Source: Promethearchaeota archaeon (GTDB taxonomy: Archaea; Asgardarchaeota; Hermodarchaeia; Hermodarchaeales; Hermodarchaeaceae). From it: a stretch of 44,275 nt of DNA. Positions 1 to 42,662 of this stretch are shown one piece after another (positions within the stretch are counted from its first letter, which is position 1; each line of letters starts with the position of its first letter). The position numbers and the translations under genes were made by a program. The notes under the pieces were generated by a model. The model made no database searches and was not told the DNA's origin. It was given only the letters and a program-made list of their open reading frames with translations. The stretch lies in the NCBI GenBank assembly GCA_048938385.1, contig JBHLMG010000021.1, positions 1-44,275 on the forward strand, given 5' to 3'.

Positions 1-510
1 AACTTTCCCTCACGGTACTAGTGCACTATCGGTCTTGGGACGTATTTAGGGTTGGGAATCGATGCTTCCCAGCTTCCCACGGGATTTCCGACCCATGGTA
101 CTCAGGGACTCCAGCCCAAGCCTGTTGTGTTACGCCTACGGGGCTATCACCCTCTATGGCGAAACTTCCCAGGATCCTTCGGCTTCGACAACGAGGCAGC
201 GGCCGGGCCCTGCAACACCACATCTCCGCGTGGTTTCTCACACGGATTCAGTTTGCCCTTTTCCCTTTTCGCTCGCCGTTACTCAGGGAATCTCATTTGA
301 TTTCTTTTCCAGCCCCTACTAAGATGTTTCAGTTCGGGGCGTTCCCACTCCTCGAAAGGAGCGGCGCACATTATTAGCGTACGCCAGGAAGTCCTATTCG
401 GCGATCTGCGGATAAGGCTACATGCACCACCCCGCAGCTTATCGCAGCTTGTCACGGCCTTCGTCGGCGCCCAAGCCTAGTCATCCACCAAGTGGCGTTG
501 TTGTGTTGGC
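1..510 (-). rRNA. rrl: 23S rRNA, 5' portion (runs off the window start)
   Basis: Reverse complement reads ...GCCACUUGGUGGAUGACUAGGCUUGGGCGCCGACGAAGGCCGUGACAAGCUGCGAUAAGC..., the archaeal 23S 5' end, and ends in GACCGAUAGUGCACUAGUACCGUGAGGGAAAGUU, conserved domain I. The 5' boundary is approximate. Confidence 0.97.
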
Positions 511-678
511 ACTACTTGGAACCCACACTGATTCTGACTGGCGTTATCCAGGGTATGCGACCTATGCATAGCCATCATCGTGAAGACCAAGGAGAGGACG
601 GGTCCTCCTAGGCTCGACACCCATATGCACGGCACATGGGCTGAAAGTGTTGGTAAAAAGGAGGGACGCACATTGAGC

Positions 679-5244: not shown

Positions 5245-5638
5245 TGTGGCCCAGAGATGAAGGACGGCTGCCGGTAGTTCCCTCGGGAACAGCTGAGGAA
5301 GCTCCAACCTCCCATTAGGCAGCGGTACGGCGCGAGTCGTAGAATGAGAATTCTGCTCTGGGAACAGCAACGACACGACCAATGTTGATATGACGATGAT
5401 GCAGTCGAGGGTTATCCTTAACCCGAGCAACATGTTGGTGACAATATGTTTGATAACCTGCTGAGGACAGCGTTGGAACCGATGAAACGGCCTATCACCG
5501 TGGGAGCAAGCCCAAATAGGTCGCTAATGAGGCGCCTTCTGAAGCGACGGGTAGGGTGCTTAGCTAGATGCCGTCAAGCCGCTCGAGGCAACTTGTGTGG
5601 CTGAACAAAAGATGGGCTACTCTTATCACTGGGCCACA
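5245..5638 (+). ncRNA. rnpB: RNase P RNA (archaeal, likely type A)
   Basis: P1 TGTGGCCCAG/CTGGGCCACA; CR-I GAGGAAGCTCC; CR-V AACAAAAGATGGGCTACT; P8-like TACGGC-GCGA-GTCGTA and P9-like GAAT-GAGA-ATTC hairpins; K-turn-like GATGA../CTGA pairs; followed by a T-tract. Confidence 0.93.
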
Positions 5639-8469: not shown

Positions 8470-8609
8470 GGGCTCGTAGCTTAGCTAGTCACACTCGGAC
8501 TTCCGTTGTGGGTAAGGTTAGAGCATCGGGCTTTTAAGGAGGCGTATGAGACGAAGTGCCCTCCAAAGAAACCCGAGGGTCGCGGGTTCAAGTCCCGCCG
8601 AGCCCGCCA
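8470..8609 (+). tRNA. tRNA-Lys(UUU) with two introns (D-loop ~8489-8516; canonical 37/38 at 8537-8570), CCA encoded
   Basis: Acceptor GGGCTCG/CGAGCCC, anticodon stem TCGGG/CCCGA with CT-TTT-AA, T arm GCGGG-TTCAAGT-CCCGC. The 37/38 BHB is perfect (CTTT/AAAG); the D-loop BHB is relaxed. Confidence 0.93.
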
Positions 8610-8653: not shown

Positions 8654-8786
8654 TGGTGCAGGGGACGGGATTTGAACCCGCGCAGGCCTACGCCACTGGG
8701 ACCTGAACCCAGCCCGTGTAGTCCCTGAAATGGTCCAAAATAAAAGGGAGCCCAGTTCAGGTTTGACCAAACTCCGGCACCCCTGC
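8654..8786 (-). tRNA. tRNA-Leu(CAG) with 45-nt intron at ~21/22 (8718-8762), CCA encoded
   Basis: GCAGGGG/CCCCTGC acceptor, CTGGG-TTCAGGT-CCCAG anticodon arm, long variable arm; BHB central helix GGTC/GACT and intron helix CCTGAA/TTCAGG. Confidence 0.93.
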
Positions 8787-37494: not shown

Positions 37495-38313
37495 ATGCAT
37501 TTGGAACTCATAAGAAACGAGCCTGCTGTTCTTCTTCGTGGTAGTCGGCGTAAGGTTCTCATTGTTGCTGATTTGCATATAGGATATGAGCGAACACTGG
37601 TTCAACAAGAAAATTATTCGAGCAAGATAACAGAACAGGTTCTCCAACACCTGGATGGCATTGTGGAGCGCGTAAAACCTACCGAAATCATCATATTAGG
37701 CGATTTGAAGCACACGATTCGTACCTTTTCGAAGCAAGAGTTCCGAAGTATAGCATTAGGCTTAGCTCGGCTTCAACAACGGGCAACTCTAACTGTAGTC
37801 CGTGGAAATCATGATGCCGATCTTGAGTTAGTTGTTCCGGATGGTGCAGCAATCATTCCATCATCAGGATTTAAACTGAGCTTTGGTAAGCATCGTATCT
37901 ACCTTTTACATGGTCATGCCCAACCCACTGAAGAAATTCTATCATGCCAGCATTTGCTCATGGCACATGTTCATCCAGTAATAACCACTACCACTCTAAA
38001 AGGGCGAAAATCTAAACACCGCGTCTGGGTAAAAACTGGATGGCAGCCAACCGTTATTGAAGCATTTACTCAGTGGTTTGGTAATCGAGTAGTGGAAAAA
38101 CACCCAGAAACCATCTCAAGTGTGCTTGATATGAAAATACTTGTAATCCCCGCATTTCTTGATTTATTACATGGACATGTTCTCAATAACTCAGCTTCGA
38201 AACGGTTTCAAGGAAACCCCATATACCGTCATTTAAATTTAAACCAAGCAGAGATCGTGATGCTCGATCACACCTACCTTGGTACAGTTCAGCAACTTCA
38301 TGAAACAGAATAA
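37495..38313 (+). CDS. Lhr-associated metallophosphoesterase (MPE/PdeM-like)
   Basis: ADLHIG, LGDLKH, RGNHD, HGH, HVHP, IPAF. Confidence 0.9.
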   Translation: MHLELIRNEPAVLLRGSRRKVLIVADLHIGYERTLVQQENYSSKITEQVLQHLDGIVERVKPTEIIILGDLKHTIRTFSKQEFRSIALGLARLQQRATLTVVRGNHDADLELVVPDGAAIIPSSGFKLSFGKHRIYLLHGHAQPTEEILSCQHLLMAHVHPVITTTTLKGRKSKHRVWVKTGWQPTVIEAFTQWFGNRVVEKHPETISSVLDMKILVIPAFLDLLHGHVLNNSASKRFQGNPIYRHLNLNQAEIVMLDHTYLGTVQQLHETE

Positions 38314-38360
38314 AGGCTAAGGAAAATATTTAACTCCAATTTACTTTATCCTGCATCGCT

Positions 38361-38530
38361 GGGCCGGTGGTCTAGCTTGGTATAGGCAAGAAGACTGCTT
38401 TCTTCAGACCGCTAACGATTCGCGGTTCGGGACCATGAAAGCTCAAATCTTCATGGCGAGATTCCGTGAGATCTGGGGTTCAAAGCCAGATGGGAACTTC
38501 CATCTGGAGAAACTCCCCATCGGCCCACCA
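38361..38530 (+). tRNA. tRNA-Pro(CGG) with three introns (22/23: 38384-38416; 37/38: 38432-38462; 59/60: 38485-38513), CCA encoded
   Basis: Removing the three BHB-flanked segments gives GGGCCGGTGGTCTAGCTTGGTATGATTCGCGGTTCGGGTCCGTGAGATCTGGGGTTCAAATCCCCATCGGCCCACCA, a complete cloverleaf; a T-tract follows. Confidence 0.92.
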
Positions 38531-38622
38531 TTTTCATTGTTTTTTGCTCGTAACCCAAGTTTTAATTTCGGCAATCCCCGTAATTTTGGTGAATTTGCGT
38601 AAAGCACTTAAAGAATAGTTGG

Positions 38623-39411
38623 ATGCGTGTAGCTATGCCTGTCTCAGCGCAGGTCAGACAGCGTCTTGCAAGACGAATCGCAGGGGAGATATCGCTATCG
38701 GATAACCCGGGGCGTGTTATGCGAAAATGGCGAGAAATGTTTCATATCCCTCAAATCCAATTAGCAGAGAATTTCGTACCAATTGACGAAAAAACCCCCA
38801 CCCCCGGCGTATCACCCTCAGTAATTAGTGACTATGAAAGTGGACGCCGTCAATCACCTGGAACAAAAACTATCAAACGCTTCGTTGAAACCATAATCGC
38901 TTTAGATGAACAAAATGGCGGACAGATCATTAATGCTTTCCAGCGACTGATGGGTGTAGAGATCCCTACTAACATCATTATTGATGTTAGCGAATTCGCT
39001 CAAGGAATAACAGCAAAAGAGTTTCTTGAAACACTTCGAGGGCAGGTGGTGGCCTGTGAAGAGCTACTCAATCGTGAAATTCTTGGCTATTTGGCTATTG
39101 ATACAGCAGAGGCACTTGATGGTCTTTCTAGTAATGGATTTCTGAAATTATTTGAGGCTTCCACGGATCGCGCTTTGGTTCTTATCAATGCATCAACCGG
39201 TCGATCCCCATTAGTCGCAGCAAAAGGTGATGTTAAACCAAGTCTTTTTGTACTACATGGAGTAGAACAAATCGACTATTTAGCAATCGAACTTGCAGAA
39301 CGCGAGCGTTTTCCGCTAGCAATCTCTCGACCAGAATCAGTGGAAAACATGTTAAGGCGATTACAAACCCTACGAAAACATACAGTGACAGAAACCCAAG
39401 GAAGAAAGTGA
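38623..39411 (+). CDS. Archaeal HTH (XRE-like) transcriptional regulator, COG1709-like
   Basis: RIAGEISLSDNPG..RKWREMF, GVSPSVISDYESGRR.SPG, STGRSPLVA. Confidence 0.88.
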   Translation: MRVAMPVSAQVRQRLARRIAGEISLSDNPGRVMRKWREMFHIPQIQLAENFVPIDEKTPTPGVSPSVISDYESGRRQSPGTKTIKRFVETIIALDEQNGGQIINAFQRLMGVEIPTNIIIDVSEFAQGITAKEFLETLRGQVVACEELLNREILGYLAIDTAEALDGLSSNGFLKLFEASTDRALVLINASTGRSPLVAAKGDVKPSLFVLHGVEQIDYLAIELAERERFPLAISRPESVENMLRRLQTLRKHTVTETQGRK

Positions 39412-41669: not shown

Positions 41670-42662
41670 ATGATTGATGAAACTCGGAAAGCAATTCGAT
41701 GGGGGAGAAGCAAAACCTTAGTAGTTAGCCTACCTCGGCGTTGGATAACGAAGCATGCTATTGAGCCAGACTCACAACTTCATATCCAAGAAGGACCTGA
41801 AGGGGCGCTCCGAATTACGCCTCTACAGATTTCTGGAGCACCTTCTGATAAAACGGCTACACTCCGTCTTTTAGACCAAGATGAATTAACCTTAACCACC
41901 ATCTTAGAAACACATTATGTTGTAGGCTATGATCAATTAGCAATCGAGAGTAGCCGGCGGATTAATGAACTCGTTAAGAAAACCTTGTCAAATATTGTTA
42001 ACAATCTCCCTGGATACGAGATTTTAGAGAGCACGGATCGCCGTGTTGTAATCAAATGTGTTACTGCACTTCTTGGTCATGACATCATGGAATTTGTCAA
42101 AATGAGTAGCCGTATCACAATGGAAATGATCGACCGCCTTATCTCGGGTTTACGAGCCGGACAAGATGAAACAGAGCGTGTAGCGAACGAAATTATATTG
42201 GATAGCTGGCGACAGCGCGGTAACTATTTGCGCGCTCAACGAGTATTAAGAAAAGCCCTTATCACTCGCCCAACGGGACTAACTCTTGAGCCTGCGGATA
42301 TCTTTGACACCGCCTACTTTGCGTTACAGCTAAGCAGCATACATGAAAACATCCAACATATCGCCGAAGCGCTTACCCGTCGTCAACCACCAAGCGATCA
42401 AAATAAACTTGCTGTCGCTGCACTCAGTAAAGTTTATGGCAATCTGAAAAAGGCTGTTGCCGCCTTTCTTCAACGAAACCGGGAAATGGCTCGTCAGGTA
42501 TTAGGTGAAATTCCCTTGCTTCGACAATGGAAACGCCAGACAGAGACTATCGTCGATGTCATGAAGGATTCAGTGATTACGCAAATCATTCTTGATCGGA
42601 TGGAGGAAATGCTATCATATAACGGCGGAATTGCAAAAACTGCTTTGTTGCTAAAAACCTGA
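41670..42662 (+). CDS. Divergent AbrB-PhoU family regulator inserted between atpA and atpB
   Basis: ETRK..WG.SKTLVVSLPRRW, YVVGYD, LPGYEILE as in archaeal PhoU; acidic PhoU motifs are degenerate. Confidence 0.75.
   Translation: MIDETRKAIRWGRSKTLVVSLPRRWITKHAIEPDSQLHIQEGPEGALRITPLQISGAPSDKTATLRLLDQDELTLTTILETHYVVGYDQLAIESSRRINELVKKTLSNIVNNLPGYEILESTDRRVVIKCVTALLGHDIMEFVKMSSRITMEMIDRLISGLRAGQDETERVANEIILDSWRQRGNYLRAQRVLRKALITRPTGLTLEPADIFDTAYFALQLSSIHENIQHIAEALTRRQPPSDQNKLAVAALSKVYGNLKKAVAAFLQRNREMARQVLGEIPLLRQWKRQTETIVDVMKDSVITQIILDRMEEMLSYNGGIAKTALLLKT

Follow-up and report, generated by a model that had tools for sequence, protein, structure and literature searches.

Triple-intron tRNAs were described from the Thermoproteales, for which three introns are given as the maximum (Sugahara 2008, reviewed in PMC4033280), and heavily interrupted tRNA genes are also known from Asgard archaea: 92-95% of the tRNA genes in three complete genomes are interrupted, over half multiply (PMC11291895), and the accessible part of a preprint gives, for the tRNAs of three families, 2.2 inserts per gene with up to five, and two paralogues of the tRNA endonuclease EndA in most Asgard genomes surveyed (bioRxiv 10.64898/2026.10.13.758758). 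Hermodarchaeia tRNAs are discussed neither in the text of PMC11291895 nor in the main text of that preprint. As for archaeal mRNA, just two spliced cases, cbf5 and Haloferax HVO_1309, are listed in a 2023 review (PMC10485636); splicing of the cbf5 intron was demonstrated experimentally in Sulfolobales/Desulfurococcales, and other mRNA introns had been predicted (PMC2738675).

Within the window (the whole 44,275-nt stretch of DNA analysed here), a 170-nt tRNA-Pro(CGG) gene at 38361-38530 on the forward strand is cut by three bulge-helix-bulge (BHB) introns. Its parts and immediate surroundings are:

37495..38313, forward: upstream neighbour, a metallophosphoesterase gene (Pfam PF00149)
38321..38334, forward: probable archaeal BRE/TATA element, an A-rich run then TTTAA, about 30-40 nt upstream; a presumed promoter
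38361..38383, forward: exon 1, tRNA positions 1-22, acceptor 5' strand and D-arm; matches the intron-free orthologue in genome G016
38384..38416, forward: intron 22/23, 33 nt, a relaxed BHB with a 4/4 central helix and weak outer helices (ARAGORN on the spliced gene, shuffles, orthologues)
38417..38431, forward: exon 2, positions 23-37, with the anticodon CGG at 38428-38430 (ARAGORN, orthologues)
38432..38462, forward: intron at the canonical position 37/38, 31 nt, full hBHBh' (ARAGORN on the spliced gene, shuffles, orthologues)
38463..38484, forward: exon 3, positions 38-59 (ARAGORN, orthologues)
38485..38513, forward: 29-nt intron 59/60, with a strong intron hairpin and a 3/4 central helix whose purine-purine mismatch faces A57
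38514..38530, forward: exon 4, positions 60-76, CCA encoded (ARAGORN, orthologues)
38531..38545, forward: T-rich tail, a probable terminator judging from its sequence and from archaeal oligo-T terminators
38623..39411, forward: downstream neighbour, a helix-turn-helix protein gene that serves as synteny anchor

With the introns removed, the gene yields a 77-nt product that ARAGORN calls as tRNA-Pro(cgg), complete in its four stems and with CCA encoded. Its syntenic orthologue in G016 is naturally intron-free and likewise 77 nt long, so that the exon borders are fixed independently of the BHB motif; point changes aside, the spliced sequence and this orthologue are the same. The central helices are TGGT/GCTA (4/4) at 22/23, TTCG/CGAG (4/4) at 37/38, and TTCA/AGAA (3/4, with one A-A) at 59/60, each bounded by 3-nt bulges. 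When the introns are shuffled in place, the observed BHB class comes up with p = 0.0075, 0.0032 and 0.018, respectively. Two unsupervised splice searches with differing scores, which tried BHB-compatible deletions without being supplied with the answer, both returned exactly these three introns as the best solution. The coordinates, lengths, helices and bulges in the original prediction, and the clean cloverleaf that it expected after splicing, are thus borne out by the splice searches, shuffles and orthologues. Its remark that standard scanners often miss or miscall such genes also held in the window scan, where neither Rfam nor ARAGORN without intron search reported it. In a comparison of nine family members, the A-rich run and TTTAA lie at an equal upstream distance in all of them. 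According to ViennaRNA, the central helices pair with probabilities of about 0.1 or less, and about 0 for 22/23, so that the motifs would not be expected to form without help. A split or permuted tRNA was considered and ruled out, the four exons lying in order within 170 nt; the anticodon arm of the spliced tRNA-Pro is absent from viral contigs, which gives no hint of an attachment site.

Among named relatives, the downstream gene is closest (72-78% identity) to those of Hermodarchaeota assemblies, which places the host among the Asgard archaea, as had been surmised, and there in the Hermodarchaeia. An intron-less CGG gene elsewhere, named in the original prediction as the mark of a pseudogene, was not found: the host assembly (2.48 Mb, 89.8% complete) holds no second CGG gene, intron-free or otherwise, and at that completeness a further one could be missing. 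Its other proline tRNA genes are an intron-free Pro(TGG) at C23:185660-185736 and a Pro(GGG) with two introns. Roughly 33 of the 46 tRNA loci contain introns, with apparently three or four inserts each in the genes for Gln(TTG) and His(GTG) and in one for Leu; this census is approximate, since automated splicing of the remaining tRNAs worked for about two thirds and left several multi-intron genes unsettled to the base. The host also encodes RtcB and two EndA genes, the latter in the C23:325049 and C23:190407 regions. The product of one, EndA alpha, aligns to Aeropyrum EndA alpha (E 6e-46), the nearest among solved structures, with the catalytic Tyr-His-Lys triad Y124/H132/K163 and the two substrate-binding residues R156 and W183 corresponding to Aeropyrum Y125/H133/K164, R157 and W183, and with loop residues K41/K43 aligned to the conserved Lys K44 and to R46 of the Crenarchaea-specific loop; the second subunit has no catalytic His. 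That loop gives EndA broad specificity and allows cleavage in the D-loop (PMC3241643). The best explanation of the pair is an (alpha-beta)2 enzyme of the broad-specificity type, with one subunit predicted to be catalytic and one structural, which agrees with the relaxed endonuclease that the prediction had called for. The further suggestion that the gene bears on the evolution of the eukaryotic TSEN is not shown by tRNA-Pro(CGG); the catalytic EndA is nearest to that of Aeropyrum among solved structures.

As far as the text of PMC11291895 and the accessible part of the preprint (bioRxiv 10.64898/2026.10.13.758758) describe them, the multi-intron tRNAs of Atabeyarchaeia and Freyarchaeia/Jordarchaeia likewise contain several short BHB introns at D-arm and T-arm sites, are missed by scanners, occur with two EndA paralogues, and show no copying between tRNA genes. 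The host, a member of the Hermodarchaeia, differs from them in a lower burden (about 33 of 46 loci by our own approximate census) and in that losses as well as gains are visible; the Pro(CGG) genes published for Atabeyarchaeia contain a single intron, against three in the host. The likeness to Thermoproteales lies in three cis-spliced BHB introns, non-canonical sites and an (alpha-beta)2 EndA with the Crenarchaea-specific loop; in contrast to that order, the host has no sign of intron transposition, and its congeners reach four introns. Copying of introns between tRNA genes, the Thermoproteales type of transposition, was rejected for want of near-identical second copies: each of the three introns is found once in the host genome (blastn-short), the other matches being 13-14 nt long with E >= 0.14. 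With the tRNA-Pro(CGG) gene, Hermodarchaeia join the Asgard groups whose tRNAs are heavily interrupted. The rarity that the prediction had attached to such genes does not stand; multi-intron Asgard tRNAs are published in the two sources just named, and the triple-intron state of tRNA-Pro(CGG) is ordinary for Asgard archaea.

Conservation and covariation at the locus can be observed directly. In 19/19 genomes of the family the same helix-turn-helix gene follows immediately downstream of the tRNA, and all 19 tRNA genes give the same 77-nt product, with a mean exon identity of 98.3% and an intron identity of 56-67%; intron length and BHB pairing are kept across the family despite this drift. Among close strains from two other studies, all five listed differences in the gene are intronic. 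Intron 22/23 is present in all 15 genomes of the host's own genus and absent from the four of the sister genus, whose genes show exactly the predicted junction. In each of the 15 its central helix pairs 4/4 and has swapped only between G-C and G-U and between U-A and U-G, and it is paired in 10/10 aligned sequences; covariation there is weak, with 118/500 shuffles reaching the paired fraction. Intron 37/38 occurs in 17 of the 19 family genomes. At 59/60 the purine-purine mismatch opposite A57 is kept in 14/15 orthologues, and six pairs of the hairpin have changed on both sides, a covariation score reached by 0/500 shuffles. No contigs skipping a tRNA-Pro(CGG) intron were found in four DNA runs.

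Within the own genus, 12/15 genomes have four introns, the extra one at 17/17a, and 3/15, the host included, have three; of the four sister-genus genomes, one has no intron, one only 17/17a and two only 37/38. In a tree of RpoB and the neighbour gene, two of the three-intron genomes, G001 and G008, fall inside a four-intron clade (support 100 and 85), implying that both lost the 17/17a intron, and the host comes out as the earliest branch of the genus, though weakly supported (68 and 47). Its three-intron state is likely to reflect loss of the fourth intron, at 17/17a, that most congeners keep. The 17/17a and 37/38 introns of the sister genus are closer to their own-genus counterparts than are introns of other positions, and the comparison favors their presence in the family ancestor, followed by repeated loss. 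Since the 17/17a and 22/23 motifs overlap, an order of splicing is implied. A single gene with 0, 1, 3 and 4 introns offers a clean series in which to study how introns are lost and in what order they are spliced. A palindromic CTAG helix underlies the 17/17a intron, which hence has direct repeat flanks (L004-L018, first 50 nt of the gene). Positions 16-17 are AT in 13/13 genes with this intron and CT, CT, CA and AT in the four intron-free lineages, where they resemble the last two bases of the intron. Gain or loss at 17/17a through duplication or slippage is possible, and the fourth intron may have been lost either by slippage between the CTAG repeats or by precise loss and a point change.

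BHB inserts of 28-41 nt also interrupt five protein genes of the host (loci L177, L240, L241, L326 and L329), all outside the window; no mRNA introns were found within the window itself.

C23:40400-40430, reverse: aEF-2 paralogue (aEF-2p) gene, 31-nt insert, full BHB
C23:180501-180528, reverse: dnaG, 28-nt insert (BHB, homology)
C4:12651-12691, forward: cbf5, 41-nt insert (BHB, homology)
C23:131117-131145, reverse: Roadblock/LC7 gene, 29-nt insert (BHB, homology)
C25:75791-75825, forward: CoA-transferase gene, 35-nt insert (BHB, homology)

All five inserts have a complete (4/4) central helix (shuffle p 0.0003-0.005 for each), and precise removal of the insert restores the conserved reading frame and motifs exactly. 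The aEF-2p insert was first spotted in a marker-gene search, through an EF-2 motif in a 68-codon frame; the aEF-2 profile covers 4-67 and then 67-496 across the insert. A canonical EF-2 copy is present on C16, and the split gene has no diphthamide loop, which identifies it as the paralogue aEF-2p of PMC6143161. The insert occurs in 13/13 family genomes with the gene, at 31 nt or at 30 nt with an in-frame stop, and a central-helix pair that is half exon and half intron compensates across them (7 A-U, 4 G-C, 1 G-U). The dnaG insert is in 15/15 family genomes, with the DnaG model matching 1-30 before and 32-419 after it, and in ten further independent metagenome contigs; no spliced dnaG junction was seen against these 10 unspliced ones in a contig collection that is mostly DNA and hence uninformative on splicing. 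The cbf5 insert is found in 12/12 own-genus genomes, at 40-43 nt, and the gene is intact in three sister-genus genomes. The CoA-transferase insert has a patchy distribution (host and three congeners, same codon), and the Roadblock insert is in the host alone among 16 genomes. Intron-free relatives are known for the cbf5, Roadblock and CoA-transferase genes.

A genome-wide scan for frame-joining BHB motifs ranked dnaG, aEF-2p and cbf5 at the top. A homology search that made no use of the motif recovered all five inserts and none further, their relatives having been fetched on purpose; the reverse search over 499 orthologous genes, a two-genome comparison that misses inserts common to both, gave one new case, the MoxR AAA ATPase gene of G018, whose Walker A region contains an insert of 26 nt bounded by a full BHB (L366, C10:39546-39571, forward). 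That the motif-free searches add so little indicates that such inserts are few per genome. Two other mRNA candidates, C31:41426-41454 and C3:8637-8664, were rejected as ordinary gene junctions in which the downstream part is a whole domain.

Inserts of this kind are present in at least seven Asgard families besides the host's. In cbf5 (L297, L299, L301, L304, L316-L323, L325) a 26-41-nt BHB insert occurs in 13 genomes of five families, including Freyarchaeia/Jordarchaeia and Atabeyarchaeia, and splits the codon of the catalytic Asp after its first base, which is the crenarchaeal site (PMC2738675); the Hermodarchaeia insert lies elsewhere, some 28 codons further upstream. In dnaG (L306-L315) the insert of three other families precedes the Hermodarchaeia site by three to four codons. 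In aEF-2p (L226-L232) two other families have one, in one case at the Hermodarchaeia site and in the other in the G3 motif, with an intron-free congener. Carriers of the cbf5 insert include two complete genomes with published wetland-soil metatranscriptomes (PMC11291895), those of Freyarchaeia (G053, insert on C1 near 1483500) and Atabeyarchaeia-1 (G029, on C1 near 383750). In two further EF-2 homologues, L231 (G041) and L233 (G044), the G3 motif is disrupted, whether by a short duplication or by a long stretch of unrelated sequence; these breaks are not BHB-like at first sight and are possibly assembly artefacts. Known archaeal pre-mRNA BHB introns measure 16-44 nt and the Asgard inserts 26-43 nt, and both break the frame. 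Differences are the five genes in one genome, the distinct cbf5 site in Hermodarchaeia, and the basis of the argument for splicing, which here is sequence.

The reading that we consider best, at roughly nine chances in ten, is that tRNA-Pro(CGG) is a functional gene whose product would be spliced in cis by the (alpha-beta)2 EndA and RtcB, an enzyme system in which the endonuclease most likely also serves at least five mRNAs. As a working single-copy gene it would be transcribed as one precursor, in which the two-subunit endonuclease would cut each bulge-helix-bulge and RtcB would ligate the four exons to a normal 77-nt tRNA. The 37/38 and 59/60 introns should be cleavable with the acceptor, anticodon and T stems formed; removal of 22/23 would require refolding of the D-arm and probably the broad-specificity loop of EndA. 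The same endonuclease would most likely excise the 28-41-nt introns from the host mRNAs. We infer transcription, cleavage, ligation, the order of these steps and the losses of introns from the anatomy of the gene, its conservation and covariation, and the enzyme genes, all of which are directly observed. Such joining of mRNA exons by RtcB would be comparable to eukaryotic splicing of the XBP1/HAC1 type.

Could the gene instead be a pseudogene, or dispensable, with the intron-free Pro(UGG) tRNA reading CCG and the inserts no more than scars of decay or integration? An intron-free Pro(TGG) gene is indeed present and the host assembly is incomplete, yet the locus is kept throughout the family with nearly identical exons, BHB pairing persists as the insert sequence drifts, strain differences are confined to the introns, and no integrase is found among the neighboring genes; we regard this explanation as extremely improbable. 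A scheme in which only two introns are efficiently removed, 22/23 being retained as an enlarged D-arm or cut at a shifted position, would fit with that motif being the weakest of the three (an outer exon helix of 1 bp, a hairpin z of -0.9 and a central helix that ViennaRNA disfavors) and with the near-equal alternative solutions from one of the two splice searches. It is harder to reconcile with a central helix that stays complete through pair-preserving swaps alone, with the exact junction in sister-genus genes lacking the insert, and with an EndA that has the loop shown to permit D-loop cleavage (PMC3241643), and it seems very unlikely.

For the five coding-gene inserts, the alternative is that they are not spliced at all and represent programmed frameshifts, ribosome bypass sites, pseudogene lesions or assembly errors. 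Recoding can be stimulated by hairpins too; against it, orthologous inserts at the same site differ in frame class (28/29, 30/31, 40-43 and 32-35 nt), and versions of 30 and 42 nt contain in-frame stops, neither of which a frameshift of constant offset could accommodate. The single-genome Roadblock insert and the patchy CoA-transferase insert are what lesions or errors might look like, but the exon proteins are 84-98% identical in single-copy core genes, and inserts recur in 12-15 genomes and, for dnaG, in the ten independent metagenome contigs. The five-family cbf5 insert, moreover, shares its codon position with the crenarchaeal intron for which splicing has been demonstrated experimentally (PMC2738675), and the sixth case, in G018, came from a search blind to the motif and has ends that form a full BHB. 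We therefore hold this alternative to be unlikely; splicing of the coding-gene inserts out of the mRNA is highly probable.

No report of introns in dnaG or in Asgard mRNAs was found in the open-access literature searched, a body that mostly excludes subscription papers, and mRNA introns are unmentioned in the accessible part of the Asgard tRNA preprint (bioRxiv 10.64898/2026.10.13.758758); the mRNA inserts have probably not been described before. A broader proposal, which we favor with some reserve, is that Asgard archaea routinely splice mRNA with their tRNA endonuclease, in several housekeeping genes per genome, among them dnaG, the aEF-2 paralogue, cbf5, a eukaryotic-signature gene of the Roadblock type and metabolic genes, the introns being gained and lost within a genus and recurring at a few hot spots in at least eight families, and the proteins being truncated by standard annotation, all of it so far unreported. 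Under the same proposal the triple-intron tRNA would be one substrate of a wider Asgard BHB-splicing system. If the inserts are spliced, the closest prokaryotic relatives of eukaryotes had protein-catalyzed splicing of several mRNAs before the spliceosome, and in Asgard gene catalogues DnaG, Cbf5, the EF-2 paralogue and signature proteins are truncated or absent.

Several further features of the host tRNA set and of the window may be recorded. In the host genome (G000), an apparent two-intron tRNA-Ile with anticodon TAT, unusual in archaea, lies at C23:120739-120884 (forward), and two Leu tRNA genes have an intron at 8/9 (C46:10185-10373 and C23:187436-187546, both reverse), the first with four inserts. 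A tRNA-Trp(CCA) at C22:80551-80726 (forward) has an intron at 59/60 and one of 68 nt at 37/38; the latter, as in euryarchaeal guide introns, contains words resembling C/D boxes and a segment complementary to the anticodon arm. A near-identical tRNA-Cys pair on different contigs (C9:1565-1639, forward; C44:5425-5499, reverse), one member near a contig end, is possibly an integration site or a binning overlap. In the window, 8470-8609 (forward) is a two-intron tRNA-Lys(TTT) miscalled as Leu by ARAGORN, with a D-loop intron of about 28 nt whose border is not pinned and a 34-nt intron at 37/38 (8537-8570); 8654-8786 (reverse) is a tRNA-Leu(CAG) with a D-arm insert of about 47 nt, one or two introns, missed by both ARAGORN and Rfam. 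Positions 1-512 (reverse) are the 5' part of a 23S rRNA gene, with no 16S gene upstream within the window. Between the A and B subunit genes of an A/V-type ATP synthase is a 330-aa ORF (41670-42662, forward) with no Pfam/NCBIfam match, and the RNase P RNA at 5252-5631 (forward) has long inserts relative to the Rfam model.
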